From an uncultured Thermococci archaeon (GTDB lineage Archaea; CAYQAE01; CAYVLA01): a DNA stretch of 64,000 bases. A program made the translations under genes and the position numbers. The notes beneath the pieces were generated by a model. That model saw nothing but the letters and a program-made list of their open reading frames with translations. It was not told the origin of the DNA and ran no database searches. Position 1 is the stretch's first letter. Every line of letters begins with the position of its first letter. Positions 21,317 through 64,000 of this stretch are shown in pieces. The stretch is taken from the NCBI GenBank assembly GCA_964549615.1, contig CAZJVP010000020.1, positions 160,001 to 224,000 of the forward strand, in the 5' to 3' direction.

Positions 21317-22480
21317 TCACTTGGGCGTGTTCCCGCGCCGGCTGACACAGTTCAAGAAGACGCCTGAGAGAGTTGCTGACACGACCGCCTGCGTCCCTGC
21401 CTCGCACCTATCTTTCCCGCTAACCGGCCGACCTCCGCAGCTCCGTGTCCTAACCCAGCCGTGACGCTGCAACGAGAACTTTGCGCCAAGGCGGGATCCT
21501 GCCGACATCAGCATGACGCCCACTAGGATTACTCCACCGGCATGCGCTTCGCGGACGGTCATCCTTATCACCCGGACCCTGTTGGGATCCCTCTCGACGA
21601 TCCCGGCCAGCAGGCTTCCGTCCTGAAGCGGACAGAATGCTATGTCGTATGGTGTCTCGAGGGCAGGCTGCCCCGCCACGAGTCCAAAATCTCCGAGGTG
21701 CTCACCGACCGAGTCGAAGAGATAAATCCTGTTCGCCCCGAAATCCGCCACGGCCACAAGGCCGCCGGGGGATATGCCTATGCCGACGGGGCGGGTGAAC
21801 CTCAGACGGCTCTGTATGTCCCATATCGTTCGGTTGAAGGAGAAGTCAGGATTGAATACCTGTACGCGTCTGACGTAACCCTCCGCCTCGAGGTAGGTAT
21901 CCACGACGAAGAGCCGGGCGCTCGAATCGAAGCAAAGGTCAAGAGGTCCATCGAACTCGCCTTCGCCCGTACCCCACGAGCCAACGGTCAACGTTGGATT
22001 CAGATCAGGCCCTAGGATCTGAACCCTCCTGTTCAGCGCATCGGCGATCGCCACCCTGCCGAGAAAGTCAACCGATATGCCCCAAGGGAGGCTGAACTCG
22101 GCCGGACCCGTCCCGAAGGATCCCAGAGCGCACAGGACCGACAGCTGGGGGCTGAGCACGACTATCCGATCGTTTCCGCCGTCGGACGCCCAGATCCTCC
22201 CCAGTTGGTCCACGGCTACCCCGCGCGGCCGGTTGAGCACGCCCACGAGCGTCTTGTTTATTGACAGATCCATGTTCAGGAGAAGAAGCCGATCATTGCC
22301 GGTGTCCGACACAACCCAAAATCCCGACGGATGATAGGCTATCGAGTTGGGAGCCAGAAGCCCAGGGCAGGATACGGCAACGCTCGAGATGCTAACGGGC
22401 ATAACCGCCATGGCGCAGGGAAGGGAAACAAAGAACACGATGAGAATGCGACCCGGCGCGTTCAGCCGATCATCTCCCAT
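21317..22480 (-). CDS. Secreted NHL-repeat beta-propeller protein
   Basis: Hydrophobic N-terminus; repeats PNSIA/PRGVAVD/PWGISVD/PLDLCFD/PVGIGIS with D-x-x-N-x-R; hydrophobic segment near the C-terminus. Confidence 0.85.
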   Translation of the reverse strand: MGDDRLNAPGRILIVFFVSLPCAMAVMPVSISSVAVSCPGLLAPNSIAYHPSGFWVVSDTGNDRLLLLNMDLSINKTLVGVLNRPRGVAVDQLGRIWASDGGNDRIVVLSPQLSVLCALGSFGTGPAEFSLPWGISVDFLGRVAIADALNRRVQILGPDLNPTLTVGSWGTGEGEFDGPLDLCFDSSARLFVVDTYLEAEGYVRRVQVFNPDFSFNRTIWDIQSRLRFTRPVGIGISPGGLVAVADFGANRIYLFDSVGEHLGDFGLVAGQPALETPYDIAFCPLQDGSLLAGIVERDPNRVRVIRMTVREAHAGGVILVGVMLMSAGSRLGAKFSLQRHGWVRTRSCGGRPVSGKDRCEAGTQAVVSATLSGVFLNCVSRRGNTPK

Positions 22481-24114: not shown

Positions 24115-24194
24115 CCTGTATATCACGCATGCCGTGCAGGTTAAAACCTGTTCCTGTCGGCACCAGACATCGCCGGGATGGCCCAAGCAAACGT

Positions 24195-26213
24195 TCAGCT
24201 GCCGGCCACCGGCACCAACACGTCCTCCAGCCTGAGGGCAAGATAGGGGGCCCAGGACTTCAGAGACAGGGAGAGCGGCGAGCTAACGTTGTGCAACGAT
24301 ATGCGGCAAACCTTCCCCTTCTCAGATGCTGGAATCGTGAATACAGGGAAGGAAAGTGTATCCCTTGCAGGCATGTCGGCTATGACCGTGCCCCCGCAGA
24401 CGATTCTGACGAAGGCCCGATCGACGCCCTTACCCGTGCAGAACACCTGTATCGTCGTCTCGTTTGAGGGCGGCATCCAGTAGAAGTCTGCATCGGCCGC
24501 AACCTCCACGGGCTGAACCAAAGCCCATGAGGCTTTATCGGCGGACAGGATGTAAGGCACGGTTGAGTTGGCCCTAAGAATCGTCGGGAGGGGAACGGTG
24601 GTCTTGTCAACGGTGCCGGCCACCGGATGCCTCGTTGACAGCTCCCCCCTGGTGCCCGTTTCAACCTCCATTGCCCTGAGGAGCGATCCCTTTGAGTCAA
24701 ACAGGGCAGCAAGGCAGGGCACGCCGCTTCCTGCCTGCACTTGAATCCCCATCCTCGGATGCTCCGCGAAGATGACCGCCGTGTTCAAGCCGGAAAGGGC
24801 GACGCTGGCTCCGCCGGCCGACTTCCCGTATTCCAGGGGGACGAACGACTGCACGCTGGTCGCCGCGTCCACGATGTCGACCGGATCGAAGCTATTGGGG
24901 TTGAACTGGAAGGGCGAGGGCCGGTCCCCCAGCTGAAGCGTCTGGTCTATCTCGCTGTTTGCCAGCCGGTACGCGTCCCACCATTCGGATGTGGCCGTTT
25001 CGGCCGAAATATAGAACAGCCAGTAGCCACCCCCCTTGACCGCCAGGGAGTACAGGTGGTACGGGACCGTCACAGGGTAGAACCACCTCAAGAGCTCCAC
25101 ACCGCCTGCCCAGACCGCGTTGAGCTTCCTCTCCCTAATGCGCTCAACCTGCGACTCGGCATAGGTCAGCCCCTCGGGCAGCATGGGCGCATCCGTTCTG
25201 AACCACCCGCTATGAGTTGAGAATCCGAATCTGTATGTGCTCTCGTCGAGGACGACGAATGGTAGGCCCTTCGCCGAGAACGCCTTTGCCATTGCCTCCG
25301 TATACCAGTTGTCCAAAGGGTTCCCGAGCACGCCGAAGATCAGATCCGGGTTGAGCTTCCTTGCCTGCCTTGCAACCTTCGAGAACATTTCCACGGCCGT
25401 GTCCCCCAGGTATGAGTAGTAACGGTCAAGCGCCCCGGCGTCCTGCAGCCATGCGTACCTCTGTGATTTCTCGACCTGCTCCTGGCGCCCGATGCTTCGC
25501 GCGAAGCCGTAGAAGCAATGATCGCAGAAACAGGTAAGGTTGCTGTACCTCGTGGGCCACGCGCCGTAGAGCTCGGCATCATACATTATCCCCTCTATTC
25601 CGCACTCCCTCGAGATGCGCGCAACGGCCAAGGTCTGGTTGGTGATGATGGCATCGAGGTAGTCCTCGTCGAAAGGACACGGCGGAGCATAGTCCGCGAT
25701 GAAGCCATCCTTGGTGACCGACTTGCGCCAGTTCCCCTCGGAAAGGTAGCTCCTGGATAGCCAGTAGATAGAGACGAAGAGATGGAGACCTTTCTCCTTA
25801 CAGTGCTCGCCAATGCTTCGCATCCTGTCAACATCCAGTGGGGCCCTCGGCAACGGCCAGATAACAGAGTTCAGCCCTGCCCGTGACAGATTCTCTGCGT
25901 AGGCAGACGGATCCGGACAATAGGCTGCCCTCAGTTTGGCGGAGAATATCCAAGCCGCCGCCTCAGAGCCAGGCTGCCGGCCCCTGAGAACGAGCAGTGT
26001 GAGCAGCAAGGTCGCGACAAGGATGGCCGACACGGCAAGAGCCGGGCTCCGTCTCTTGGCCATGCCCTTCCCGGGCTTTGCCGATGGGCATGCATGGTTC
26101 CTGGGCGAGGAATGCTTGAGACAGAATACCTCTCCACACTTATTGCACTTGTACCACCTGTGAACGGGTCTGCCGCACTCACGGCACGTCCGCATGGAAG
26201 CCTCTTCGGACAC
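24195..26213 (-). CDS. AN1-type zinc finger / TM / glycoside-hydrolase-like protein
   Basis: Cx2Cx9Cx2Cx4Cx2Hx5HxC at the N-terminus, TM ALAVSAILVATLLLTLLV, then PCPFD, EGIMYDAELY, CFCDHC..F, ARKLNPDLIFG. Confidence 0.7.
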   Translation of the reverse strand: MSEEASMRTCRECGRPVHRWYKCNKCGEVFCLKHSSPRNHACPSAKPGKGMAKRRSPALAVSAILVATLLLTLLVLRGRQPGSEAAAWIFSAKLRAAYCPDPSAYAENLSRAGLNSVIWPLPRAPLDVDRMRSIGEHCKEKGLHLFVSIYWLSRSYLSEGNWRKSVTKDGFIADYAPPCPFDEDYLDAIITNQTLAVARISRECGIEGIMYDAELYGAWPTRYSNLTCFCDHCFYGFARSIGRQEQVEKSQRYAWLQDAGALDRYYSYLGDTAVEMFSKVARQARKLNPDLIFGVLGNPLDNWYTEAMAKAFSAKGLPFVVLDESTYRFGFSTHSGWFRTDAPMLPEGLTYAESQVERIRERKLNAVWAGGVELLRWFYPVTVPYHLYSLAVKGGGYWLFYISAETATSEWWDAYRLANSEIDQTLQLGDRPSPFQFNPNSFDPVDIVDAATSVQSFVPLEYGKSAGGASVALSGLNTAVIFAEHPRMGIQVQAGSGVPCLAALFDSKGSLLRAMEVETGTRGELSTRHPVAGTVDKTTVPLPTILRANSTVPYILSADKASWALVQPVEVAADADFYWMPPSNETTIQVFCTGKGVDRAFVRIVCGGTVIADMPARDTLSFPVFTIPASEKGKVCRISLHNVSSPLSLSLKSWAPYLALRLEDVLVPVAGS

Positions 26214-41427: not shown

Positions 41428-42381
41428 ATGCCAGCCATCAGCATCAACCGGCTTTCCATGAGGACCGTCCAGACCCTCATCGACTCCCCCGAGATGTTCA
41501 ATGTCCAGATCACAAGACTATCGGACGGGTCGACCGTCATAGACGCCGGGATCGAAGCGGAGGGAGGCTACGAAGCCGGAAGGCTTGTGAGCGAGATCTG
41601 CATGGGGGGACTGGGTTCGGTTCAATTTTCCTTCACTGGGCCGATTGCCATCGAGTGCCCCTGGGTGGTCGTCTTCACCGATCATCCTCTCCTGTCCTGC
41701 ATGCTGTCGCAGATGGCCGGATGGTCGATCCGGACGAAGGGCTTCAGGGCGATGGGATCGGGGCCAGCAAGGGCTCTGGCCCAGGCGGAGGAGATCTACA
41801 GGCAATACCCCTACACAGACGGTCACTCCGAGGCCGTCATAGTCCTGGAGACATCCACCAAACCAGGGGAAACCGCCTCCGCTTGGATATCCGAGAGGTG
41901 CGGAGTAAGTCCCAAGAACCTCTACATGGTTGGGGCGCGAACCGCCAGCCTTGCGGGAACGGTGCAGGTATGCGCCCGAGTGGTCGAGACGGGAATGCAC
42001 AAGATGCACACCCTCGGAATCGATCTCGCGGGCATCCTAGCTGGACGGGGGACATGCCCGGTCCCACCCATCCTCCGGGACGACCTTGTCATGATGGGCC
42101 GGACCAACGATGCGATCCTTTACGGCGGCCGGGCAGACTACATCTTCGCTGACGCCTCCCGGTCACTTGCGCACCTGCAGTCCCTGCCGTCCTCGTCATC
42201 CTCTGACTACGGCAGACCTTTCGTCGAACTGCTCAAAGCTGCAGGATCAGATTTCTACAAGATCGATCCAGCGCTGTTCAGCCCGGCCGTCATGGGCATG
42301 GAGAACATGAAGTCTGGAAAATGCCTAAGCGCCGGAAGAATGGACATCGAGGTCCTCAAGAGGTCCTTCGGGCTGCCCTAG
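41428..42381 (+). CDS. mch: Methenyltetrahydromethanopterin cyclohydrolase
   Basis: EICMGGL, SQMAGW, MGSGPARAL, TASLAGTVQVCARVVE, MGRTNDAILYGG, FYKIDPALFSPA. Confidence 0.94.
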   Translation: MPAISINRLSMRTVQTLIDSPEMFNVQITRLSDGSTVIDAGIEAEGGYEAGRLVSEICMGGLGSVQFSFTGPIAIECPWVVVFTDHPLLSCMLSQMAGWSIRTKGFRAMGSGPARALAQAEEIYRQYPYTDGHSEAVIVLETSTKPGETASAWISERCGVSPKNLYMVGARTASLAGTVQVCARVVETGMHKMHTLGIDLAGILAGRGTCPVPPILRDDLVMMGRTNDAILYGGRADYIFADASRSLAHLQSLPSSSSSDYGRPFVELLKAAGSDFYKIDPALFSPAVMGMENMKSGKCLSAGRMDIEVLKRSFGLP

Positions 42382-44018
42382 CCCAATGCCTTCTCAAGTC
42401 GGTCTGCCACCGTATCAGGTCCGAGTGCACAAACCAAAGGGCCCATTCTGGGTCCGTGGTCGGTGCCCAGCAGCAGCCTGTAAAGGATCTGGAAGAGCCT
42501 GGAAGGGCTCACCCCATGAAGCTCGGCTGCGGAGAACACCGACGACTGGATCGCATCAGGACCGGGACTGGTCTTGATGACGCGAGCTAGGTGGCGAAGG
42601 CTCGCCTTCTCCGGGTCGGTCAGCTTGGCAATGAATGCCCTGTCGGGCTCGCCGGCCGGCCGCAGGGCGAGCTCGGGCACGAACATGCGAACCCAGTTCC
42701 GGGCGTAGATCAACCTCTGCCTGATCTGCTCAACAGCCCTCTTCGAAGGACGGCCCTTGATCAGCTCGGTCCTCCGCAGTGCCTTGATCGCCTCTGACAT
42801 GGACTCCTCTGGATCGTAGACTTGGGCGATGAGCGAAGCGAGGGTCAGGTCGATGGTCGCCGGCCTCTCTTTCGGGGGACTTCGGAGCTGGGAGATGCGG
42901 TAAAGCCTGATCATGTGCGACCTCTCTCTTTCGTTCGAGGCATCGGCCTTGCCGTAGTAGACGTCCGCGTGTCCGTCGTAGTCGGCATAGAGCCTCGGCA
43001 ACTCCCGCCAGGAGAAGCTCCTGGTCTTCATCAGCTTCTTGTTGTACAGGAACCTGAGAAGCTCAGCCGGCGCGACCTTCAACCAGTCCGCCGGGTAAAC
43101 GACGTTGCCCAAGGATGCGCTCATCTTCCTGCCGTCTATCAGAAGATGCTCGTAGAAGAAAGGCGTCGGCATGGGGTAGTCAAAGATGCGCTCAGCTATC
43201 TCCCCGTTCACCCACCATGCACTCGTCGGAACCTCATACTCCTTTCCCCCGCCCTCGCAGCTCACCTTCCAAAGCGCCCATTCGCTCGCCCACTCCCCTT
43301 TCCAGAGGATCTTGCCCTTGTCGCGCAACGCATCCGCCCACCCCACGTAGCCGCATCCTTTGGCAACCGTCTTCTCGAACTGGTAGTCGCGGCATTCGTA
43401 CCTGATCCGCGAGCCGTCGATCTCCAAGACCTGAGGCGTTATCACCTTGCCGCACTCGGCACAGATGGGCTTCCATGGCGTCCACCCCGAAGAGAGGCTC
43501 GAATCCCTGTATTTCTCGAGGATCTCCCTGACCCGATCCCGATTGTCAAGGAGCTTCTTGATGTACCTGCGGAAGCTACCCCTGTCGTATTCCTGCGTGG
43601 TCGAATACCGACGGGCCTTGTTGACCACGAAGTCCTCCATCACTTCGAGGTACTCCGCCCGGTGGTGTTCCGCGTAGGAATCGTGACAGCCGGAGGGATC
43701 TGGAACCTCCGTCACCGGCTTTCCCAGGTACTCCTCGTATTCCTTGGGGACGCCTTCGGGGATGCTCCTAAGGGGATCCATATCCTCGCCGACCCAGATC
43801 ATGCGGGCCTTGGCACCGGCGTCGCGAAGCGCGGTCACGATGGAGTCCGCCCGGATGGTATCGCTCAACCGGCCTATGTGCAGGACGCCCGAAAGGGATG
43901 CCGAGGTCTTCACGACGAAGCATGTCCTCTTGGGAACGGGCTTGTCGACGAAGTGGTACTTCTTCCTCTCGCAGATCTCCCTTGCCTTCTGGTCGGCCCA
44001 GAACAGAGGCTCCGTCAT
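42378..44018 (-). CDS. lysS: Lysine--tRNA ligase, class I
   Basis: FWAD, SGVLHIG (HIGH-like), CAECG, KMSASLGN, GPRMG. Confidence 0.95.
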   Translation of the reverse strand: MTEPLFWADQKAREICERKKYHFVDKPVPKRTCFVVKTSASLSGVLHIGRLSDTIRADSIVTALRDAGAKARMIWVGEDMDPLRSIPEGVPKEYEEYLGKPVTEVPDPSGCHDSYAEHHRAEYLEVMEDFVVNKARRYSTTQEYDRGSFRRYIKKLLDNRDRVREILEKYRDSSLSSGWTPWKPICAECGKVITPQVLEIDGSRIRYECRDYQFEKTVAKGCGYVGWADALRDKGKILWKGEWASEWALWKVSCEGGGKEYEVPTSAWWVNGEIAERIFDYPMPTPFFYEHLLIDGRKMSASLGNVVYPADWLKVAPAELLRFLYNKKLMKTRSFSWRELPRLYADYDGHADVYYGKADASNERERSHMIRLYRISQLRSPPKERPATIDLTLASLIAQVYDPEESMSEAIKALRRTELIKGRPSKRAVEQIRQRLIYARNWVRMFVPELALRPAGEPDRAFIAKLTDPEKASLRHLARVIKTSPGPDAIQSSVFSAAELHGVSPSRLFQILYRLLLGTDHGPRMGPLVCALGPDTVADRLEKALG

Positions 44019-44053
44019 GGATACACCGGAAAAATGAGCCGCGGATTCTAAAA

Positions 44054-44247
44054 TGCCGTTCGCCCCGGCCACGCCGGTGGAGCGGGCTTCGAACCCGCGA
44101 CTTCCGTCTCTTCCGAGACTCCGGATGTCCCAGGGACATGGCCGGAGAACCTACGCTGGGTCCCGTGCCCTTAGGTCACCTATGAGTCCGGCGCGCTCTC
44201 CGGTCGGGCCCCCTCGCGGGCCCGATCACCAGCTGCGCCACCCCGGC
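44054..44247 (-). tRNA. Elongator tRNA-Met(CAT) with four predicted introns (~44198-44226, 44127-44180, ~44102-44118, 44059-44078)
   Basis: Minus strand after removing the inserts: GCCGGGG TG GCGC AGCTGGTGA GCGC G CCGGA CTCATAA TCCGG AGGTC GCGGG TTCGAAG CCCGC TCCCGGC A. All four stems pair; TTTT follows; TATA-like element upstream. Met(e) rather than Ile2 is inferred from resemblance to archaeal elongator Met sequences. Confidence 0.9.
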
Positions 44248-44279
44248 AGTAGATTCGTTCCCAGAATCCTGAAAATGCC

Positions 44280-44291
44280 ATATAAATATAT
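44280..44291. promoter_or_regulatory. TATA element for tRNA-Met (-) and the divergent radical SAM gene (+)
   Basis: ATATAAATATAT, ~35-45 nt upstream of the tRNA 5' end and ~30-40 nt upstream of GTG 44322. Confidence 0.65.
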
Positions 44292-44321
44292 CCGCCCTTA
44301 GGCCGGCCCCCGAGGTTCTGG

Positions 44322-45872
44322 GTGGGATCGCTTCTAAACGAGGTCGGCGGGTTCAGGAAGAGGAAGGCGCGGCTGAGGATCGCCCTCGTCTATCCCAACG
44401 CCTACGAGGTCGGCATGGCAAGCCTTGGCCTTCACACGGTCTACTCGCTGCTCAACAGCTACGAGGACGTCGCGTGCGAAAGGCTGTTCCTAGGAATGAC
44501 GACCACTATCGAGTCGGGCTCCCCCCTCTCGGCCTTCGATGTCGTAGGTTTCTCGCTCCAGTACGAGCTCGACTTCCTCAACATGGTCAGCATCCTGACT
44601 GCCTGCGGAATAGAGCCCCTCCGAAAAAGGCGCAGGAAGCCGACCCTGATCGCGGGCGGTCCCTGCTGCGTGAATCCGATCCCGCTCACTAGGATCGTCG
44701 ACCTCTTCGTGGTCGGAGACCTCGAGCCTGTGGCGGATCATCTGGTCGACGGCCTTCTTGCCAATAGGTCGCCGGCCGAGATCGCATCTCCGCACGGACT
44801 GTTCTCAAGCGAGCTGATGAATCGGTGCAAGGCGGCCAGGGCCATGGATCTGGATTCGATTCCAGCTCCGACGAACCAACCCCATCCAACGGCAGGCGGG
44901 TTCCGCCCGGCCCTAGGATCGACGTTCATGGTCGAGATCTCAAGGGGCTGCAACGTCCGGTGCAGGTTCTGCATGTACTCGCACTGCACTCAACCTAAGA
45001 GGGAGCGGTCGCTTAGGAGGATCCGTGAGATAGTGGACGAGGGGCTCGACGTGACCGGGCTGAAGAAGGTCTCGCTCGTCGGGGCACTCGTGACCGACCA
45101 CTCCGAGATCAAGGACATACTGGCCTATCTTGTCGATAAGGGCGTGTCGGTTTCCCTTCCGTCCATTCGGACGGACGAGGTGGACGACGAGATGCTTCAG
45201 CTCATTGCCCAACTCGGCGTCAGGACCATCACGGTGGCGCCCGAGGGCAGCCCGCACGTAAGGTCGATCCTCAAGAAGGACCTCGATGAGGATGCCTTGA
45301 GATACGTGACGGAAAGCGCGGCGGAGCATGGAGTCAGGAGGATAAGACTCTACTTCATAACCGGCGTGCCGGGCGAGACGAGGCAGGACCTAGAGTACGT
45401 GGTTGAGCTCTGCACCGGGTTGTCCAGGCGCTACAGGGGCAAAGGAGCCGTCACGGCCAGCGTGAATCCGCTCGTGCCGAAACCCCACACTCCCGCCCAG
45501 TTTCTCGCGATGGCCGATCCCAAGAGGATAGAGGAAAACTACAGATTCCTGAGAAAGGCCTTGCAACCGCGCGGGGTTGACCTCAAGCTGCAAAGCATGA
45601 AGGAGTCCGTCATTCAGACCTATCTCGCGCTGGGGCGGGAAGAAACTGGAGGAGTTCTCCTCAAAGCATCCCAGAGCGCCGCGGGACTCGCAGCGTGGAG
45701 GAGGATCGCTGAATCCGAAGGCGACCCACTGTCGAGGGTCTTCGAGGGCGTAGCCGCCACGCCCTGGGACGTGATCGACTCAGGCCTTCCGCGGAGCTAC
45801 CTTCGGAGACAGCACCGCGAGATGATCGCCGCACGCAATGCAACCGCTACCGCCTCAGGAAACCATTATTAG
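44322..45872 (+). CDS. Radical SAM protein with B12-binding-like N-terminal domain
   Basis: YPNAYEVGMASLG, FSLQYELD, AGGP, EISRGCNVRCRFC (CxxxCxxC), LYFITGVPGET, PKPHTP. Confidence 0.92.
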   Translation: MGSLLNEVGGFRKRKARLRIALVYPNAYEVGMASLGLHTVYSLLNSYEDVACERLFLGMTTTIESGSPLSAFDVVGFSLQYELDFLNMVSILTACGIEPLRKRRRKPTLIAGGPCCVNPIPLTRIVDLFVVGDLEPVADHLVDGLLANRSPAEIASPHGLFSSELMNRCKAARAMDLDSIPAPTNQPHPTAGGFRPALGSTFMVEISRGCNVRCRFCMYSHCTQPKRERSLRRIREIVDEGLDVTGLKKVSLVGALVTDHSEIKDILAYLVDKGVSVSLPSIRTDEVDDEMLQLIAQLGVRTITVAPEGSPHVRSILKKDLDEDALRYVTESAAEHGVRRIRLYFITGVPGETRQDLEYVVELCTGLSRRYRGKGAVTASVNPLVPKPHTPAQFLAMADPKRIEENYRFLRKALQPRGVDLKLQSMKESVIQTYLALGREETGGVLLKASQSAAGLAAWRRIAESEGDPLSRVFEGVAATPWDVIDSGLPRSYLRRQHREMIAARNATATASGNHY

Positions 45873-46742: not shown

Positions 46743-46817
46743 AGCGAGGTGGGGCAGCCAGGAGTGCCCGACGGGCTCATAACCCGTAGGTCAGTGGTTC
46801 AAATCCACTCCTCGCTA
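46743..46817 (+). tRNA. Initiator tRNA-Met(CAT), intronless
   Basis: AGCGAGG...CCTCGCT A with A1-U72; anticodon arm ACGGG CTCATAA CCCGT with three G-C pairs; T-arm AGTGG TTCAAAT CCACT; CTTAAG ~25-30 nt upstream. Confidence 0.97.
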
Positions 46818-47139
46818 CTCCTTTCAAGGCGTCCGTCGGTTTTGGGCGTCTGCTGGTGAGGCAGCCGCGCGCTGCGTCCTACGAGGGCATCTTTATTGTC
46901 ATACAGAGTGGTTCGGCCCCTGTCCAGCACTCTCAGTGCCCTGTTCGCCTCAATCGCAGTGAGGCGCGGGTTCAAAGACAGCTACGACGTCAAAGGTTGG
47001 TCGAAAGATCCCTCGGTCTTCGAACCCTACCTCGAAGTCGAAGTCGGGGGAAAGGTTTATCAGAGCAGCGCCTACCCGCAAAGGGGTACTGAGCCAGAGG
47101 GCTCTTCCTCGGGCGGGATGCTCGTTCGGGTGGGATTCG

Positions 47140-50100
47140 GTGATGCGGGCGCCGACATTCCTCGCCTTGGTCCTGGTATCGCTTCTAAGCAGCCTATCCG
47201 CTGCAATCGCAGAGAACGCGATTACGGTGCCCGACGACTTCAGCACCATAGCTGAAGCAATAGCCGCCGCAACGCCGGGTCAGATTATACTCATTCAGCC
47301 AGGGGTCTACAATGAGAAGCTCTCAATCGATAAGGGAATAATGCTGCGCGGACTCAAGCCCGACGAGACTTTCATCTTTAGTAACGAAGAGCCGTGCACA
47401 ATCTGGATAGGTGCTGCCCATGTCGTCCTTTCTGGCGTTACGGTGATGAACTATAACGTGCGTACAAGGGGGGCCGTTCATGCCAACGGCTCGAAATACT
47501 GCACCATCACCGGCAATAGAATAATCGGCGGGCTCTATCTCACCTACTGCGACGATTGCAGAATCGAAGACAACAACATTCTTGCAGACCCATACCGCAG
47601 CACCGACGGCTTAGGCGTCATTCTGTGTCAACGCGTCACTATCCAAGGAAACACAGTCTCAGGCTTCGCGATCGGCTTGAACCTAGACCGTTCGGGTCTG
47701 TGCAAGCTCAGGCATAACCAGCTATGCGGCAACCGCCGCGGAATGTCGGTCAGAGCCATAAGCATCGACACCGCCCTTCACGATATCGACCGGACAAATG
47801 AGGTCGACGGCAAGCCGGTTTACTACTTCGTGAACGCTTGCAATCTTGTCATCGAACCCTCACATTTTCCCAAAATAGGGTACCTCGGCATAGTGGCCTC
47901 ACACAACGTTTTTGCCAGAGACCTGTCTATCACCGGGGCTGCTCAAGGAGTGCTGGTCGCGTTCTCGAGCAACGTCTTCTTGGACAATCTCACCTTGACG
48001 GACAATGATAACGGGCTGAACATGTTCTCCACCTCGGATTCCGAGATAAGGCGGAGTACCTTGAGCCGCAACAACATCGGCATCAACGCGATCCGGTCAG
48101 ACCGCATCACGGTTGTCGACAACAAGATTGGGCCGGGCGACGGCTGTGCAACGGGCCTTAACGTGCAAGCCGGAACGCTCTGGACGATCAGGCGCAACGT
48201 GATCATTGGGAACTACATGCAGATCCGAATGTATGACTGTAGGTATTTCGTCATAAGACAGAACACGGTTGCAAATGGTCTCCGAGGGCCCCCCTCGTGG
48301 AATCCAGGGTGTGGCATCGAACTCTGGTACAGCCAAGATAACAAGATCTGCCAGAACAACTGGATCGGGAATCCCGTACACGCAAGCATACCAGTCGGTT
48401 CGTATGCGAACACGTGGGATGACGGTTTGCTGGGGGGCGGCAACTTCTGGGATACCCACAAGGTCAAGGACGCAAACGGCGACGGATTCGGCGATACTCC
48501 TTATGTCATCGACCTGATGAACTCGGACAGATATCCGCTGATGAAATACTATGGTTGGGAGGACGTTGAGATCGATCTTTCACAAGCCTCAGACACGCGC
48601 TGCGATTTGAACTCGAGTCAGCTGGTCGCTTTTCACGCACGCTGGAAGCAGAGCGGCCTCGACCTTCAAGGCGGGACGATCTACGTGAATGGTACGCCGT
48701 ACAATACCAACAGCCTCGGCTGGCTGAGCTTCAGCTGCAAGTTCCCGGAATGCGGCAAGAGGTCGTGGAAGGTCACGTCAGTTGAATATGATGGTCCTAG
48801 GTCCTATGCGCAGATCGCCCCGAGTCCGTCGATCGTTTGGGATTCCGTCGACATCGAGCTGAGGGCAATAAAGGAGAGGTGCGACACGGGTTCACAGGGC
48901 CTGGCCTGGACGGCACGTTACCGATATGACCAGGCCCAGTTTGAGGGCCTCATAGTCCTCAACGACACCTGCGTACAAGATCAACCTGGCCGATATGGGT
49001 ACAAGGTTACGGAGGTGGTGGACGAGGCATATGGGCTGAGTGTATTCGAATCAAACGAGGTATCCGTTGTGTACGACAGGGTCAATCTGACACTTGTCCC
49101 TGTTGACGTGAGAGCCGACGTCGGAACGTTGGTCCCTGTCAAATGCAGAGGTACATACGAATATGATGGCTCGCCCTTCAACGGGACAGTTGGCTTCTTG
49201 CAGGTGCTAAGTTCGGACAGGGTAGGAGCCAAGGAATCAACTGCAGAATGGATCGTCGACCCACTGTACGGGCTTACGGCTTTTTGCTCAAATGCCGCAC
49301 TGGTCATCTTCGACAGGGTTAGGATCACTCTTTTCGACGACAGGATTGACGTGGGCAGCTGCACCCCCTTAGAGTGGAACGGATCATACGAATACGATGG
49401 ATCTCCTTTCAGGGGTGAGATTGAACTCAACGACAGTCCCGGATCTGACGAGGTTTGTCTCAAGAGATTCTGGGTGAAACGAATCAAGGATCCGCTTTAC
49501 AATCTGACGGCATTCACTTCGAATGAAGCGAGCGTCGTCTACGATCGGGTGATAATCAACCTTACCGTTTCCGATGACCACATAGATGTAGGACGGGCTG
49601 CCGACTTGAAGATTGCTGCCCGTTACGAGTTTGATGGTGCCGCCTTTGACGGCTTGGTCTTCTTGAACGACACCCGGATCGTCCTTGATGCCCCCGGCAG
49701 AAGGGCCTTCACCGCCTCGTCCATCACCGACTTCCTCTACGGCCTGAACGAATTCAAATCAAACGCCGCCGCCGTGACTTGGGACAGGGTCCGTGTTCTT
49801 CTATCCGTTGAGAGAGATCGCGTGGACGTTGGGACGGCCCCCGAAATTCTAGCGCACGCTGTGTATGAGTACGACCATTCGCCGATCTCGGGGTCGGTGA
49901 TACTCAACGACACCACACAGAAGCAACAGCTTGGCTTGTTCGCATACACGGTGCGGGAGGTGCGCGACGAGAAGTACGGGCTTTGCGAGTTCTCGGCGAA
50001 TTGCATCAGGGTGATCTATGACACCGTATTGCTCGACATGCTTATCTCAGACCCCAGGATCGACATCGGCACCTCGCCAAACATCACGGTCTCCGGAAGA

Positions 50101-51333
50101 TACGCGTACGACGACAGCCCCTTCGAAGGCAAGGTTCAGCTTAACGACACCCTTGCGCCAGTACACGAGATAGGGAAAAAAACTTACGGGGTCAAAGCAA
50201 TTGAAGATCCGAGGTATGGGCTTGCGACCTTCCGTTGCAATTCGGTGGACTGCGTATTCGACGAGGTGGAGATCGAGCTCAGCACCCCAAGGCATCGCAT
50301 CGATGTGGACGCGAACGCCCAGATAATCCCAGTCGCTCGCTATCAGTACGACAACACTAAGTTCTCTGGCTCCATCGTGTTGAACGACACCATCACTCGC
50401 TATCCCTATCCCTGCAAGAGGAGCTACACGGTAGCATCCATCGGAGACGCCCTGTATGGTCTCACAAAGTTCCGTTCGAACACAATTTCGGTCGTCTTCG
50501 ATCAGATCCAGGCGACGGTGACGGTGGAAGATCAGCGGATCGACGTAGGGTCGGAGGCTAATCTCACAGTTGCAGGAACGTACGCGTACGACGGATCGCC
50601 GTTCGTGGGATCGCTCCGCCTAAACGACACTCGCCTCTCCCAGGAAGAGGTTGGGAGGAGAGGATACACCGTCGCGTCCGTTAGAGACGATCTTTATGGC
50701 TTAGAGAGCTTCCGCTGCAACCAGGTCTACGTTATCTTCGATAAAGTGGGCATCATCCTTCAGGGACCTGCCCGCAGGGTCCAAGCAGGTAAGAATGCCA
50801 CAGTGGTTGCGCACGGAACATATTCCTACGACGGCCAGCCTTTCGTCGGATCGATCCACATCAACAAGCCGACCAAACAGGATTCGGTTGGCAAGATTTC
50901 CTACGGAGTCGAGGGCATCTCGGATGGCCTCTTTGGGCTCAGCATCTTCGATGCTAATCAGATCGAAGTTACCTTTGACTTGATAAGGGTGGAGCAAAGA
51001 CTATACTCGTGGATGCCGGGAAGGCTTAGGACAAGGGTGGAACTTCGGTATGAATCGGACATGTCCGCGGTCGAAGAGGCAAGGGTCACCGTCGGGCGGG
51101 TGCAGGCGATTAACTTGGGAATGGGCATCTACACGGCCCGCATCCCGGCTTGGAGTGCTGTTGTGAAGACCACCACGACCGTCGAACTTGACGGTTTCGA
51201 CCAAGTGGTTCTCGAAGTGAGAGCTGTAGCGGCCGGGACTATCGTCCTCATTGTCGTGCCCGTGCTCGTGGCAATCGTGGGAGGCCTCGCTCGTCTTCTG
51301 AAGGAGAGGAGGAGGACCCGGGAAAATCTCTGA
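47140..51333 (+). CDS. Large cell-surface protein: NosD/right-handed beta-helix, nine tandem ~79-aa beta repeats, C-terminal TM
   Basis: Signal peptide; VPDDFSTIAEAI, NEVDGKPVYY, GGNFWD...D.NGDGFGDTPYVI...DRYPL; repeats; TM followed by a basic tail. Confidence 0.9.
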   Translation: MMRAPTFLALVLVSLLSSLSAAIAENAITVPDDFSTIAEAIAAATPGQIILIQPGVYNEKLSIDKGIMLRGLKPDETFIFSNEEPCTIWIGAAHVVLSGVTVMNYNVRTRGAVHANGSKYCTITGNRIIGGLYLTYCDDCRIEDNNILADPYRSTDGLGVILCQRVTIQGNTVSGFAIGLNLDRSGLCKLRHNQLCGNRRGMSVRAISIDTALHDIDRTNEVDGKPVYYFVNACNLVIEPSHFPKIGYLGIVASHNVFARDLSITGAAQGVLVAFSSNVFLDNLTLTDNDNGLNMFSTSDSEIRRSTLSRNNIGINAIRSDRITVVDNKIGPGDGCATGLNVQAGTLWTIRRNVIIGNYMQIRMYDCRYFVIRQNTVANGLRGPPSWNPGCGIELWYSQDNKICQNNWIGNPVHASIPVGSYANTWDDGLLGGGNFWDTHKVKDANGDGFGDTPYVIDLMNSDRYPLMKYYGWEDVEIDLSQASDTRCDLNSSQLVAFHARWKQSGLDLQGGTIYVNGTPYNTNSLGWLSFSCKFPECGKRSWKVTSVEYDGPRSYAQIAPSPSIVWDSVDIELRAIKERCDTGSQGLAWTARYRYDQAQFEGLIVLNDTCVQDQPGRYGYKVTEVVDEAYGLSVFESNEVSVVYDRVNLTLVPVDVRADVGTLVPVKCRGTYEYDGSPFNGTVGFLQVLSSDRVGAKESTAEWIVDPLYGLTAFCSNAALVIFDRVRITLFDDRIDVGSCTPLEWNGSYEYDGSPFRGEIELNDSPGSDEVCLKRFWVKRIKDPLYNLTAFTSNEASVVYDRVIINLTVSDDHIDVGRAADLKIAARYEFDGAAFDGLVFLNDTRIVLDAPGRRAFTASSITDFLYGLNEFKSNAAAVTWDRVRVLLSVERDRVDVGTAPEILAHAVYEYDHSPISGSVILNDTTQKQQLGLFAYTVREVRDEKYGLCEFSANCIRVIYDTVLLDMLISDPRIDIGTSPNITVSGRYAYDDSPFEGKVQLNDTLAPVHEIGKKTYGVKAIEDPRYGLATFRCNSVDCVFDEVEIELSTPRHRIDVDANAQIIPVARYQYDNTKFSGSIVLNDTITRYPYPCKRSYTVASIGDALYGLTKFRSNTISVVFDQIQATVTVEDQRIDVGSEANLTVAGTYAYDGSPFVGSLRLNDTRLSQEEVGRRGYTVASVRDDLYGLESFRCNQVYVIFDKVGIILQGPARRVQAGKNATVVAHGTYSYDGQPFVGSIHINKPTKQDSVGKISYGVEGISDGLFGLSIFDANQIEVTFDLIRVEQRLYSWMPGRLRTRVELRYESDMSAVEEARVTVGRVQAINLGMGIYTARIPAWSAVVKTTTTVELDGFDQVVLEVRAVAAGTIVLIVVPVLVAIVGGLARLLKERRRTRENL
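48838..50973 (+). repeat. Nine tandem ~79-codon protein repeats
   Basis: Consensus [WYF]DxVxIxL...RIDVG...GxYxYDGSPFxGxVxLNDT...G...YTV..IxDxxYGLxxFxSN, counted nine times in the translation. Confidence 0.9.
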
Positions 51334-57779: not shown

Positions 57780-58299
57780 CGCGCAAGGCCAAGCGCTGCG
57801 TCTCCCCATGGGCGCGGAGCCCCGGTTCCCGCATGCGATGGACATCACCTTGCGCCGGGATGGCCTGTTCTTGTTGGAGAGGCGGGCGTCGTCTGAGAGG
57901 CGGCCCAGGATGGTGACCGCGTCCCGGACATCCGTGGGAGATATGCCATCGGTCACATGGTTTTCTGTCGGTGCCCGAGGGCTTGGCAAGCAGCTTGCTT
58001 CGGGGACCTGACCCCAAAAGCCAATTTGGCTTATGCACGGTCCGCGGGGTCCCAGGAGGGATACGGGCGATCATCGGGTATCTCCAACCCCGGGCCGTCG
58101 GAAGATCTCTCAAAGATTCAGATTCTTCAAAGCAACCCCCGCTTGGGTGGTCATCACATTCCCATGGGGTTCTGTCCGCCATCGATGGTTCTGGTGACCC
58201 GAGGGAAACCATCATCTTTCTTCCCACCACGCGATGTCGGTGAAAGCAGCCCTCATCGGTCTCCGCAGCGTTGCCATGCACATGGACCCTATGCCTACC

Positions 58300-58600
58300 G
58301 GCTGCGCAGAGTACGGGATCTGGCCCTGATCCCCTGTGTCCTTGCCGTCATCTCGGCGCCGGGCTACGCCAGGGGGAGAGCGAAATGACGTCAAGATGTC
58401 CTGCTCCCTTTTGGGCTCCATTCTGCCGACGATGTGCCTTTTCCCGGCTACTTCGCCGAGGACCGCAGCAGGCCGGACTCTACCAGGAGGGGAAGAAGAG
58501 GGTGGATCGCCTCCACTTCCCCGCGAACGGGCAGGTTCTCATGGAGAAGTTCGACATCTTCTTCGTCTGCGATCCAAGTTGGACCACTTCACAGGCGGGC
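58300..58600 (+). pseudogene. Frameshifted N-terminal relic of the 30512/32639 secreted family
   Basis: Pieces in different frames: signal-like LALIPCVLAVISAPG, KMSCSLLGSILPT, PFPGYFAED, KKRVDRLHFPANGQVLMEKFDIFFVCD (compare ARIYTPRTEQDFAARFDAMVMLD). Confidence 0.5.
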
Positions 58601-58870
58601 AGTTCGGAGATCTTGATCGGGTCGGGGAGGGCGAAATGCCCGTCTCTCTGGTCCTTCGGCCCGTCGTACACCACCGTTGCATTCTCCCTACCGGGCGAAA
58701 GGCTGTCCGCATCGGAATACACCGTTCCCTACGATAGGCGGCACGCATTCCGCAAAGACAAGGACCCGGCCTTGAGCCCGTTCGTCCCACGTTCATCCCA
58801 CCAACGAAGCGGGACCACTCCACTCTCGGCACTCTCGGAAAACGATTATATGGCACAATGTGCGAGGAGG

Positions 58871-60076
58871 ATGTGGGTGAGCGGGTTGGGAAAGGTGCGA
58901 TCTACGACCCGGATGGCCTTGCTTTTGGCGGGGATTGGCTTGGCCTTCCTACTGGGTTTCGTCCTGGTGCCACGAGGCAAGGAGGCCCAGAGTCTTTCCG
59001 GGCAACAAGGGCTTGGCCTTGAACTGCGTGCCCGGATCGTGAGCAACATCTCGGATCCGTTCGGACCAGTGGTTGTGGAGCTGGTCTGCAAGAACGTTCG
59101 AGAATCAGAGAGCGTCGCGATCAGCCCTTTCCCGGAGTGGGGTTTCAACCCGATCTTCCTCGTGAGGGACCCCAAGGGCCAACTGTTCTGCTCGGTGAAC
59201 GATCGATATGGGCCGCCACCGACCCGCAGCGTGGTCTTGGGGCCGGGCCAGAACTTCTCCAAGCTCTTCAACCTGTCCGACCCGCCGTACCCCGGGCGAT
59301 GGGATGGGATCTCCAGCTTCGATATGTTCAGCCAAGCTGGCGAGTATCAGCTGACCGTGGTGTACCGGCCGTTTTACCACCTGTTCTTCATCAACAGAAC
59401 GATGGCCGATCTCACGATCAATACGAGTCTGACCTTCAATAGGCCCCGAAGGCTTAGGATCCTGCACCTTGGAACGTGCAACCTTTCGTTCCTCAGGCGG
59501 GATCTCGGCTCGGCCTTTCTAACCGAGGGCGGGCCAGGACCCTACCCGGCGATCGATGAGGCGATCCAGGCGTACGATCTCTTGATCTTGGACAACGTTC
59601 CTCCGGAGTGGGTGGGCGACTCCCAGGCACTCGGAAAGGCTGTGATGGAGCGCGGCCTAGATCTCGTTATCTTCGGTGGCCCTCTCTCCCTCGGCGGGAA
59701 CGGCAGTTACTCATCATGGAGCGAAAGCGGGCTTGGCGATCTTCTGCCGGTCGAATGCACGGGCTTCTATATGGAGATTCCTTCGGGGGCCCGACCCCTA
59801 CCCGTCCTGGGCGGGCAGCGAGACACGATATTCAGGGACCTTGACACGTCGAATCTGAATACAATACGCCACCTGAGCCCGTATGTCCCACGGCCGGGCG
59901 CGACGGTCTGGTCCGTCATCCAATGGGACGGACGAGCACCGGAGTACTTTCTGTGCTCTTGGCCAATTGGCAAGAGCCAAGTTATGGTGTGCGCCGCCCC
60001 TCTTGAGGAGATCCTCGCCTGGGCGAACGGCAGGCAACTGGTCGCTAGGATCGTTGAAGCAACGATACCGGATTGA
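58871..60076 (+). CDS. Membrane-anchored protein: Ig-like domain plus GATase1-like domain
   Basis: GAGGAGG before ATG 58871; N-terminal TM; YDLLILDNVP, GLDLVIFGGPLSLG, W.ES.LGDLLPV, WPIGKS. Confidence 0.78.
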   Translation: MWVSGLGKVRSTTRMALLLAGIGLAFLLGFVLVPRGKEAQSLSGQQGLGLELRARIVSNISDPFGPVVVELVCKNVRESESVAISPFPEWGFNPIFLVRDPKGQLFCSVNDRYGPPPTRSVVLGPGQNFSKLFNLSDPPYPGRWDGISSFDMFSQAGEYQLTVVYRPFYHLFFINRTMADLTINTSLTFNRPRRLRILHLGTCNLSFLRRDLGSAFLTEGGPGPYPAIDEAIQAYDLLILDNVPPEWVGDSQALGKAVMERGLDLVIFGGPLSLGGNGSYSSWSESGLGDLLPVECTGFYMEIPSGARPLPVLGGQRDTIFRDLDTSNLNTIRHLSPYVPRPGATVWSVIQWDGRAPEYFLCSWPIGKSQVMVCAAPLEEILAWANGRQLVARIVEATIPD

Positions 60077-61697: not shown

Positions 61698-64000
61698 TTA
61701 CGCCAAATCCAGCATGATCGCGTCAACGTAGTAGAACCGGTTCTGCACCGGAAGCAGCTCACCGGCCTGTATGATATGGGTCCGAGCCTCCAGGATTAGT
61801 CCCTTCAGCCTGAAGGGATACGCCGGCGTCTCCGATCCGTCGTGTACCCACGGATGGAAACCCATCCTCTCGACCTGCGTCCCGCGCGGGGCGTGTGGGA
61901 GGGGAACTACAACGTACCGCCAGCCGTCGAAATCGATATAGCTGTCCGCGCGAACCGAGACCCACCGGGCGCCGGAGGCGTCCTCGAGACGGAACAGGAT
62001 CCTTCCCCAGGAGCTGTTTCCGCGTATCAGGGTTCCTAGGCCGGTGGCCGACTCAGGCACTAGGATCTCGGATCCCGTCCAGAGCAGTTGGGTGTAGGCG
62101 ATTTCCAGGGGATGGTGGGGCGAATCCTTGGGCACGCCAACCCGTAGGACCGCCCGTCCCCGCTTGGGCCAGCGGGTCGCAGAGAGACTTAGATCGACTC
62201 TGCGGTAGGGGACCGAGAGGGAAAGGCTCTCGAGCTCCTCCGCCGGCCGAGAGTCGACTTTCCAGCTGCGCAGGCTTTCGAAGCTCGCCAAGGTCCTTCG
62301 TCTTGATCTTCCCCCCTCGTGCCTCGGACAGCCCAAGGCAACGCTCACCACCCGTTCCACGCCCTCGAGATACACGGGGGAACTCGTCAGCTCGAGGCGG
62401 ATCCGCGAGCCCCTGAGCCGCGGCTTCCGTCGGTTGCCGAACATGTCTGTGACGGACGGGCTAGTTATGCCCTCGCACCGGACCGCCATTGGCCGTCGGC
62501 CCCGAATCGTCCAGAAGGCGTGAACGGGGCCGCCCGTCTTTCTCCTAAACCGCAAGGCATAGACGCTGCCTGACCGGGTTTGGATCGACCCGTCAAAGCT
62601 TGCCTGGTCGAGGGCCCTGGTCATGGTGGAGTACGCGCAGAAGCTCTCCCGTGGATTCAGCTCAGGCGGCCTGTGAAGAAGGCCGATTGGGCCGTAGTGG
62701 CTGTAGAAGTAGTCGTCCCCCGGGTCATAGAGTGAGGTGCACATGCCAAAGAAGACCACGCCTGACGCAAGGCCCAGTAGATGGGCGCGTACGTAGTAGT
62801 CGGCTTGCTCCCGCTCGGTAAGCCAGCCTGGTGCAACTGGCGCGTAGATCGCCTCGGTTAGGTAGAGGGGGAACTCCGCGTAGCCGTAGATCCGCTGCAG
62901 TGCCTTGAGCACGTAGATGCCCGAGAAAGGCGCATACAGGGGGCCAACCTGGCGTTCGGGCATCGATGTGAAGAGGTCGAAGTCCAGGCCGAAGGCGTCC
63001 AGGTACTCCTTCGGATAACCCCGTCTCATCATCGCCCCGATGAAGGGCGGGAACCCGTTACCGAAGATCAACTTGGCGCCGGGGAAATCCCTTCTGACGA
63101 GCTTGCTGTAGCCTATCCCGGAGCTCCAGCAGTTGTCCAGGCGTCTTTTCTCCTCCTCGTTGAGATCGAGGGGACTTCTTCCCAGCACCTCAGGGGGGAA
63201 TGACTGTCTGTGCCTGGCGCTCAAGTAGGTCTCCCAGAAGACCATCCAGGCATCCATCCGCGGCATCTCCCGCATCTTCGCGAGCATCTTTTCGGGATCC
63301 CCCGGCGTCTCGCAACAGGTGTTGGCGATGCAGCAGACGTTTCCGCAGTTGAGGCCGATCTTGTTGGCCTCAAGCACGGCGAGCCTCCTGGCGTTTTCCT
63401 CCGGGCCCTGGGATAGAAGGAAAACTGGTAACGTCCAGCGGACGCCCGCCATCCGCAGAAGCGGGGCGGCGGACTCGGGCGGCAGCCCGTTATGAACCTC
63501 GAAGAAACACCACATCCCGAAGGGCGAATCCCTGGTCGCTTTCCTCGTGTCCTTCGGCAGACAGGCGAACGACGTCCTGTGCTCCACCCACCTATCCTGG
63601 CCAGGACACCCAAGGCGAATGAGAAGTTCGAACTTGCCAAATACGGCCTGGGCTAGGTCCTTCACCAAAGCCACGTGCTGCAACGGCGCCAGCGCGAGAT
63701 CCTCGACGGTTTTGCGGACCCTGCCATAGGGATCCACAATCTGCAGCCCAAGCACTAGTCGTTGCCGCTTCTTGCGCTGGCTCTGGATATCGATCGTGAG
63801 CCTCGGCGCCTGCGGCTCTTCGAACACCGGCGCGATGCCGTCCCATCTCAGGGCCATCCTTGCAGGCGCGAGCTCCAAGGTCGCAGCGAAGATGTGGACT
63901 GAGCTTGGAGGCCCCGCCGGCCTGGGGAAGCTCTCGTCGTCGACGGCCACCTTCTTGGTCAGATCGATCTCCAAGTACTCCGTCCCGTCGTTGAGGAACT
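61698..64000 (-). CDS. Large glycoside-hydrolase-like protein, 5'-partial (frame is open to the window edge)
   Basis: DSPFG, LRMAGVRW, LYLTE, EQADYYVRA, GLLH; C-terminal CBM-like IDFDGWRYV. Confidence 0.7.
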   Translation of the reverse strand, partial: FLNDGTEYLEIDLTKKVAVDDESFPRPAGPPSSVHIFAATLELAPARMALRWDGIAPVFEEPQAPRLTIDIQSQRKKRQRLVLGLQIVDPYGRVRKTVEDLALAPLQHVALVKDLAQAVFGKFELLIRLGCPGQDRWVEHRTSFACLPKDTRKATRDSPFGMWCFFEVHNGLPPESAAPLLRMAGVRWTLPVFLLSQGPEENARRLAVLEANKIGLNCGNVCCIANTCCETPGDPEKMLAKMREMPRMDAWMVFWETYLSARHRQSFPPEVLGRSPLDLNEEEKRRLDNCWSSGIGYSKLVRRDFPGAKLIFGNGFPPFIGAMMRRGYPKEYLDAFGLDFDLFTSMPERQVGPLYAPFSGIYVLKALQRIYGYAEFPLYLTEAIYAPVAPGWLTEREQADYYVRAHLLGLASGVVFFGMCTSLYDPGDDYFYSHYGPIGLLHRPPELNPRESFCAYSTMTRALDQASFDGSIQTRSGSVYALRFRRKTGGPVHAFWTIRGRRPMAVRCEGITSPSVTDMFGNRRKPRLRGSRIRLELTSSPVYLEGVERVVSVALGCPRHEGGRSRRRTLASFESLRSWKVDSRPAEELESLSLSVPYRRVDLSLSATRWPKRGRAVLRVGVPKDSPHHPLEIAYTQLLWTGSEILVPESATGLGTLIRGNSSWGRILFRLEDASGARWVSVRADSYIDFDGWRYVVVPLPHAPRGTQVERMGFHPWVHDGSETPAYPFRLKGLILEARTHIIQAGELLPVQNRFYYVDAIMLDLA

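Follow-up and report, generated by a model that had tools for sequence, protein, structure and literature searches.

The stretch analysed here (the window, 64 kb of contig CAZJVP010000020.1) carries on its minus strand, read from 44247 to 44054, a tRNA gene with the anticodon CAU, whose 194 nucleotides (nt) are divided into five exons by four introns. Its nucleotide 1 lies at 44247 and the discriminator A73 at 44054, and it is followed on the same strand by lysS, the gene for a class I lysyl-tRNA synthetase (LysRS). An earlier reading made without database searches (the sequence-only reading) had given the same end points, 44054-44247, which are correct, but had not stated the strand. The locus comprises the following features:

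44054..44247, minus strand: whole tRNA(CAU) gene, with five exons (21, 17, 8, 23 and 5 nt) and four introns, from ARAGORN on the spliced form
44227..44247, minus strand: exon 1, tRNA positions 1-20a (acceptor 5' strand, D-stem 5' strand and most of the D loop)
44198..44226, minus strand: intron 1 (I1), 29 nt, in the D loop between 20a and 21, HBh' type
44181..44197, minus strand: exon 2, positions 21-37 (D-stem 3' strand, anticodon-stem 5' strand and the anticodon CAT)
44127..44180, minus strand: intron 2 (I2), 54 nt, at the canonical site 37/38 in the anticodon loop, hBHBh' type
44119..44126, minus strand: exon 3, positions 38-45 (anticodon-stem 3' strand and start of the variable loop)
44102..44118, minus strand: intron 3 (I3), 17 nt, in the variable loop between 45 and 46, relaxed motif
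44079..44101, minus strand: exon 4, positions 46-68 (variable loop, T arm and first three nucleotides of the acceptor 3' strand)
44059..44078, minus strand: intron 4 (I4), 20 nt, in the acceptor stem between 68 and 69, hBHBh' type using nucleotides of the T-stem 3' strand
44054..44058, minus strand: exon 5, positions 69-73 (last part of the acceptor 3' strand, with the discriminator A73)
42381..44018, minus strand: lysS, 36 nt downstream of the tRNA (TIGR00467, 316 bits), used as synteny anchor

In silico removal of all four inserts leaves 74 nt, which ARAGORN calls as tRNA-Met(cat), bearing out the cloverleaf that the sequence-only reading had proposed after removal of 29, 54, 17 and 20 nt. 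Its stems measure 7 bp (acceptor, including one G.U pair, G7.U66), 4 bp (D), 5 bp (anticodon) and 5 bp (T), its D loop is 9 nt long and contains G18 and G19, and its variable loop has 5 nt; the CCA end is not encoded. When I2 is retained ARAGORN gives no call unless its intron mode is on, and when I1 or I4 is retained its calls are shifted or truncated.

Orthologues were sought by scanning LysRS against one genome per species, which returned 57 loci, none of them with an identical match. The three best matches (66, 64 and 62% identity) are on contigs (L001-L003) that bear the label Candidatus Hadarchaeota, the name of a phylum in the kingdom Methanobacteriati, and the remaining loci show at most 54% identity over the full-length protein (59% for the truncated L046) and carry other taxon labels. 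The same tRNA gene is found directly upstream of lysS in all three Hadarchaeota contigs, where the gene order radical-SAM, tRNA, lysS, mch and GHMP kinase is also kept, with proteins that are 49-69% identical; an exon-pattern search of the other 54 LysRS loci revealed no orthologue adjoining lysS outside these contigs. Once the inserts at the same four positions are removed, each of the three genes likewise gives a 74-nt tRNA-Met(cat), so that all four precursors, including that of the window, reduce to the same product. Across the four genomes the inserts measure 29/26/25/30 nt (I1), 54/54/55/53 nt (I2), 17/17/17/17 nt (I3) and 20/21/21/27 nt (I4).

Conservation and covariation were counted over these four sequences (the window and L001-L003), which are related by descent. 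Exon columns are invariant in 68 of 74 cases against 70 of 129 for insert columns (Fisher p = 8e-9), and all 14 gapped columns fall in inserts. The variable exon columns are positions 7, 16, 17, 20 and 20a, all in exon 1, and position 60 in exon 4, with exons 2 and 3 invariant. For the cloverleaf together with the intron helices, 97.0% of 168 cells are paired and seven pairs are changed on both sides, a result matched by none of 500 shuffles, with slid controls at 27-44%; for the splice-motif structure the values are 94.4% of 124 cells and eight pairs, again matched by 0/500 shuffles. Most of the covariation comes from I1, in which six of the eight intron-helix pairs and one of the four central pairs (pair 16, C-G to G-C in L003) are changed on both sides, and one I4 pair covaries as well, the fifth of its intron helix, which is C-G, U.G or U-A. 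Within the exons, G7.U66 is replaced by A7-U66 in L002. I3 and its flanks are invariant except for a 4-nt hairpin loop, so there is no covariation there, and the lack of any variation in the I4 central helix and the whole I3 motif speaks neither for nor against either motif. This comparison confirms, at the level of sequence, a real and conserved four-intron tRNA(CAU) gene.

The intron boundaries follow the bulge-helix-bulge (BHB) rule, by which two 3-nt bulges flank a 4-bp central helix and the cut falls after the second nucleotide of each bulge. The motifs are:

I1 motif: central helix 4/4, intron helix 6-8 bp, no contiguous outer helix (the D stem is 2 nt away), HBh' type, in 4/4 genomes
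I2 motif: central helix 4/4, outer helix formed by the 5-bp anticodon stem, hBHBh' type, in 4/4 genomes
I4 motif: central helix 4/4 (T-stem nucleotides 63-66 with the 3' end of the intron), intron helix 5-8 bp, outer helix 2-3 bp (nucleotides 60-62 with 70-72), hBHBh' type, in 4/4 genomes
I3 motif, register A (17 nt): central helix 3/4 (one G.A), intron helix 3 bp, no outer helix, relaxed, in 4/4 genomes
I3 motif, register B (44101-44119, minus strand, 19 nt): strict motif 1 nt away, central helix 4/4, intron helix 4 bp, in 4/4 genomes

I1, I2 and I4 therefore have a full 4-bp BHB centre with two 3-nt bulges at the predicted cut sites, and every helix and bulge listed in the sequence-only reading can be found in the gene (CTGG/CCGG with TG^A and AG^A for I1; CTCA/TGGG with TA^G and AC^A for I2). 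The intron helix of I2 is 5 bp long with its second pair broken in three of the four genomes, which gives a contiguous count of 1 bp in those three and of 5 in L003. Of the roughly 11,000 possible boundary pairs that were scanned exhaustively in each precursor, no more than 29-45 (about 0.3%) combine a 4/4 central helix with an intron helix of at least 2 bp, and I1 and I4 are among them in every genome. For I3, register A leaves a 5-nt variable loop and register B a 72-nt tRNA with a 3-nt variable loop, both accepted by ARAGORN; we prefer the 17-nt register because its 5-nt variable loop is the same as that of the neighbouring initiator tRNA (see below), with the exact cut sites being ambiguous. 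Splicing in silico, the geometry of the motifs and, above all, an architecture conserved in all four genomes with compensatory changes thus support the original proposal of a tRNA gene split by four BHB-type introns.

The raw gene escapes standard tRNA finders, as had been predicted, at least for ARAGORN and the Rfam tRNA model. The sole tRNA that ARAGORN calls in the window is at 46743-46818 on the plus strand, which is also the only tRNA matched by Rfam at the gathering score, and ARAGORN misses the raw four-intron gene in L001, L002 and L003 too. With the E-value threshold relaxed to 10, Rfam gives four weak matches in 43900-44400, none of them to the tRNA family. A weak Rfam match to YrlA (Y RNA-like; 44022-44125, minus strand) scores 17 bits against a gathering score of 69 (E 0.86); the T arm and the trailer account for this match, and we rejected it as a real YrlA. 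The tRNA at 46743-46818, 2.5 kb from the four-intron gene, is an intronless initiator tRNA-Met with A1-U72 and a GGG/CCC anticodon stem. It is also present and intronless at the corresponding place in L002 (7270-7344, minus strand), identical over the stretch compared, and therefore not every tRNA gene of the lineage is interrupted. A search for further hidden tRNA genes by an intact T-arm pattern in the window and L001-L003 returned only the four-intron gene, the initiator and two matches inside open reading frames (ORFs), and no second copy of an elongator tRNA-Met was found in the window or in the loci of up to 21.6 kb. Because neither ARAGORN nor the Rfam tRNA model sees the gene, genomes of this group will seem to be without an essential tRNA.

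The marks of an initiator are lacking in the spliced tRNA, which has G1-C72 and an anticodon stem that ends in A31-U39, without the three G-C pairs of initiators at 29-31/39-41. We consider it likely that the locus is a functional gene with a CAU anticodon, that its product is an elongator tRNA-Met in preference to other identities, that the host is an archaeon of or near Hadarchaeota, and that the precursor is spliced by EndA and an RNA ligase. The best surviving alternative keeps the same four-intron gene but makes its product a tRNA-Ile2, in which C34 would be converted to agmatidine for the reading of AUA. The CAT anticodon is common to genes for initiator Met, elongator Met and Ile2, according to PMC8450103. 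ARAGORN names tRNAs from the anticodon alone, and its call is compatible with Ile2. The acceptor stem, presumably, resembles that of archaeal elongator tRNA-Met rather than tRNA-Ile, and we regard the Ile2 identity as unlikely.

A tRNA-Met gene with only three introns would result if the 17-nt I3 were kept as a long variable arm, and ARAGORN does accept the I3-retained sequence, as a 91-nt, class II-like tRNA-Met. I3 forms a 4-bp hairpin whose loop varies, as variable arms do, and no other intron of the gene has so weak a splice motif (3/4). However, its hairpin is followed by five to eight unpaired nucleotides, a stretch unlike known variable arms, and its invariant 3' part is complementary to anticodon-stem nucleotides 39-42, forming in all four genomes a strict 4/4 centre with two 3-nt bulges for which a variable arm would have no need. 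We know of no class II tRNA-Met, and find this alternative quite improbable. Hardly credible is a decayed pseudogene or an assembly chimera without function, the latter held out by the sequence-only reading as a possible refutation: the standard finders give no call and the sources are metagenome assemblies, but the gene stands in four independent assemblies with the same gene order, its exons are invariant at 68/74 positions against 49-69% identity in the flanking proteins, the insert helices are maintained by compensatory changes, and the promoter-like motif described below is invariant. As judged from the alignments, the exon/insert pattern in such diverged genomes rules out a pseudogene or an assembly artefact.

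Returning to a tRNA-Met gene with four introns, I1 lacks an outer helix and the centre of I3 is mismatched, for which reason the endonuclease would have to tolerate relaxed motifs; a relaxed specificity is thus reasonable to expect. No EndA gene was found among the 50 ORFs of at least 100 amino acids in the window (NCBIfam, with Pfam on 18 of the 50). A Hadesarchaea genome (YNP_N21) is described as having an alpha4 EndA with an extra L3 loop, tied to more disruption of tRNA genes (Kaneta et al. 2018, PMC5829648, as far as the available text goes).

The four motifs cannot all coexist with the cloverleaf, because I4 uses T-stem nucleotides 63-66 and because I3 and I2 compete for anticodon-stem nucleotides 40-43; we infer that the precursor passes through non-cloverleaf folds. 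The flanks of the gene contain two segments complementary to parts of the precursor:

44249..44256, minus strand: segment of the 5' leader, -9 to -2, with complementarity to the inner part of I2
44147..44154, minus strand: segment of I2 that pairs with the 5' leader (leader-helix partner)
44038..44048, minus strand: segment of the 3' trailer, +6 to +16, with complementarity to positions 46-56 (44091-44101; variable loop and T-stem 5' strand)

The leader helix has 8/8 pairs in each of the four genomes and is longer in L001 (10 bp) and L003 (12 bp); its pairs were counted by script, since the MAFFT alignment had gaps inside the helix. Two pairs are changed on both sides (pair 8 in L002 and pair 6 in L003), and one pair occurs as three pair types. 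In the window and L002, no leader 8-mer has an 8/8 match in the precursor other than this I2 segment, and in L001 and L003 the 8/8 leader matches all belong to the same longer helix, except for one stray match in L003. The trailer helix is 11 bp long and paired in 44/44 cells, with four pairs that vary on the trailer side only (U.G/U-A and G.U/G-C). RNAalifold and the single minimum-energy folds of all four genomes choose it over the T stem, and with it the centroid folds of the window and L001 draw exactly the hBHBh' motif of I4. Partition functions at 37 C, computed on sequences extended by 14 nt of leader and 22 nt of trailer, gave the following ranges:

Leader helix: 0.95-1.00 unspliced; not applicable after the four removals
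Trailer helix: 0.80-1.00 unspliced; 0.00-0.47 after the four removals
T stem: 0.00 unspliced; 0.46-0.97 after the four removals
Acceptor stem: 0.00 unspliced; 0.52-1.00 after the four removals
I1 central helix: 0.59-0.99 unspliced; not applicable after the four removals
I4 central helix: 0.05-0.72 unspliced; not applicable after the four removals

Without the trailer, the I4 central helix of the unspliced precursor reaches at most 0.03 in three genomes and 0.32 in L002. Without flanks, the I3 central helix has a probability of 0.38 in the unspliced window precursor and of up to 0.43 in the other genomes and intermediates. Folding that includes the flanks is informative for the two long helices only. 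An attempt to derive the splice order from folding without flanks was abandoned, as the central helix of the canonical intron has a probability of about 0 and the introns cannot be ranked.

We tentatively propose, from these modelled folds, that the two flank helices could make of the precursor a two-domain scaffold rather than a cloverleaf with added loops, which would unfold the T arm and acceptor stem and show otherwise impossible motifs, such as that of an intron within the acceptor stem, to an alpha4-type endonuclease, with splicing triggering refolding and leader release. The transcript would be a precursor of about 230 nt from which EndA and an RNA ligase have to remove four introns. 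Its 5' domain, closed by the helix of the leader with I2, would display I1, and its 3' domain, closed by the helix of the trailer with positions 46-56, would keep the T arm unfolded, with the I4 motif formed and displayed. I1 and I4 would be excised first by EndA, the ligase joining the exons, upon which the acceptor stem and T arm could form and push the trailer off. I3 would be next and the canonical I2 last, and removal of I2 would free the leader for RNase P, with trimming of the trailer and addition of CCA.

Several observations weigh against the four-intron architecture or against this pathway. In register A, which leaves a variable loop of the normal 5 nt, the I3 motif has only 3/4 pairs, and the I2 and I4 central helices have no changes on both sides, that of I2 varying on one side (TGGG in three genomes and TGAG in L003). 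Thermodynamic support is partial: the I4 central helix reaches only 0.05-0.09 in the folds of L002 and L003, folding never predicts the I2 central helix, nor that of I3 with leader and trailer included (probability about 0), and the anticodon stem is not recovered even in the mature sequence. Shuffling is a weak-to-moderate control for both flank helices, the observed length being reached by 379, 53, 238 and 0 of 2000 shuffles per genome for the leader, and by 38, 15, 3 and 144 of 2000 per genome for the trailer. Variation in the trailer helix is confined to one side and consists of transitions, and a further shuffle control for it is uninformative (264/500); the helix also covers the I3 3' splice site by 1-2 nt. 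The intronless initiator with its own trailer gives a 9-bp chance helix.

Two further pairings were considered and set aside. A pairing between I2 and I4 in the minimum-energy fold of the window is not kept in L002 or L003, and the leader helix does not yield a BHB at the 5' end, since on manual check no 3-nt bulges fit in any genome.

I2 is unusually conserved, with 34 of 55 columns invariant, which the pairing with the leader may explain. RNAalifold on I2 with the anticodon arm gives 22 pairs, none of them doubly changed, and no supported internal structure, and no box C/D motifs conserved over the four genomes were seen by eye in I2. Invariant blocks are also present beyond the splice motif and the leader-pairing segment, for example in the 5' third, and RNAalifold pairs these with the 5' strand of the anticodon arm, without covariation. 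On this folding model, such blocks may act as a decoy that frees nucleotides 39-43 for the I3 motif.

Upstream of the leader segment lies a candidate promoter element:

44279..44291, minus strand: AT-rich promoter-like motif and TATA-box candidate, 13 nt, -44/-45 to -32/-33, invariant in 4/4 genomes

The presumed role of this 13-mer is that of a promoter. In archaea the TATA box lies 24-27 nt from the transcription start; if the 13-mer is a TATA box, the start would therefore be near -12 and the leader helix would lie within the transcript. The 13-mer is nearly palindromic and stands between the tRNA gene and a divergent gene for a B12-binding radical SAM protein (44322-45869, plus strand), and from its position and symmetry it might serve both directions. 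On the other side of the tRNA, all four genomes have five or six consecutive T after the trailer helix, and the lysS ATG is at +35 to +37. The lysS start is preceded by the trailer helix, the T run and a GGTG-like motif, with no separate promoter evident in any of the four genomes; from this arrangement, tRNA and lysS may share one transcript, or lysS may be reached by read-through of the T run.

The sequence-only reading had given up to three introns for multi-intron tRNA genes, which stands as the maximum stated in 2014 (PMC4033280) and 2021 (PMC8450103), for Thermoproteales, and no longer holds in view of a preprint of Oct 2026, according to which a single Asgard tRNA gene can contain as many as five intervening sequences (10.64898/2026.10.13.758758). 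The four introns described here exceed the three stated for archaea in those two years and, in the available text of these sources, are matched only by the Asgard preprint. The gene is among the most fragmented tRNA genes known outside Asgard archaea. No text on a four-intron tRNA in Hadarchaeota was found in the literature searched, which covered main texts; supplements, which may list the gene, were outside the search.

Several known systems resemble this gene in part. Thermoproteales such as Pyrobaculum calidifontis and Thermofilum also have BHB introns at canonical and noncanonical sites, and the text available describes some of their motifs as forming only in non-cloverleaf folds or after removal of another intron (PMC8450103, PMC4033280). 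They differ from the present case in having at most three introns against four, in their heterotetrameric (alpha-beta)2 EndA, and in belonging to TACK, not to Hadarchaeota. To our knowledge, and in what our search returned, Thermoproteales have no helper helices between leader and intron or between trailer and T arm. The Asgard genes are similar in containing several intervening sequences, many in the D arm, located at BHB motifs and missed by standard annotation (10.64898/2026.10.13.758758; PMC11291895). In contrast, they belong to another phylum, and in those Asgard genomes nearly every tRNA gene is interrupted (introns in 92-95% of the tRNA genes of three complete genomes, PMC11291895), whereas here the one further tRNA gene in view, the initiator, is intronless in the window and L002; in the text accessible to us the Asgard counts are census calls, with no per-gene architecture described. 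The disrupted tRNA genes of Hadesarchaea archaeon YNP_N21 are from the same phylum-level group as the present gene; intron numbers for single genes are not given in the available text (Kaneta et al. 2018, PMC5829648).

Outside archaea, the nuclear tRNA genes of the red alga Cyanidioschyzon merolae also contain ectopic BHB introns, and experiments on a three-intron tRNA-Ile have shown the 37/38 intron to be spliced out after the noncanonical ones (PMC3728597), the same order as proposed here. That system differs in being a eukaryotic nucleus with at most three introns, and helper helices in leader or trailer are not described in the text available. A similarity also exists with split and permuted tRNA genes (Nanoarchaeum equitans, Caldivirga maquilingensis, algae), in which pairing of leader and trailer builds the EndA substrate (PMC4090602). 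There, as far as that text describes them, the flanks pair together and form the BHB itself, whereas the gene reported here is contiguous and its flanks pair with the interior of an intron and with a T-arm strand, apparently freeing exon nucleotides for the BHB. No leader or trailer helper helices of such a kind are described in the literature that our search retrieved.

In our view, the two flank helices are the most interesting lead from this locus. If they are real, an old question becomes testable, namely how an intron in the acceptor stem or T arm gets presented as a BHB, and if the proposed scaffold were true it would define a new class of cis-acting flank elements that license extreme tRNA fragmentation, in a lineage outside TACK and Asgard. 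The gene also places extreme tRNA fragmentation in Hadarchaeota, where the sole EndA described for one genome of the lineage is the alpha4 enzyme with an extra loop. Alpha4 is the enzyme class long thought to be strict, and the finding bears on the co-evolution of endonuclease specificity and intron gain.

The wider window has a G+C content of 59.4% and encodes several archaeal markers identified with NCBIfam, namely Pus10, RNA polymerase subunit F, PAN, aMBF1, the class I LysRS, Mch and a methanogenesis-marker-16-like protein. The Pus10 gene, for a tRNA pseudouridine(54/55) synthase (310-1536, plus strand; TIGR01213, 407 bits), belongs to the ordinary tRNA-modification equipment of archaea and is of note here because the T arm takes part in the proposed refolding. 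Large ORFs with no or almost no family match are found at 22465-26213, 58271-60073 and 61701-63974, and a protein of 1397 amino acids with NosD-like parallel beta-helix repeats is encoded at 47140-51330 (plus strand).

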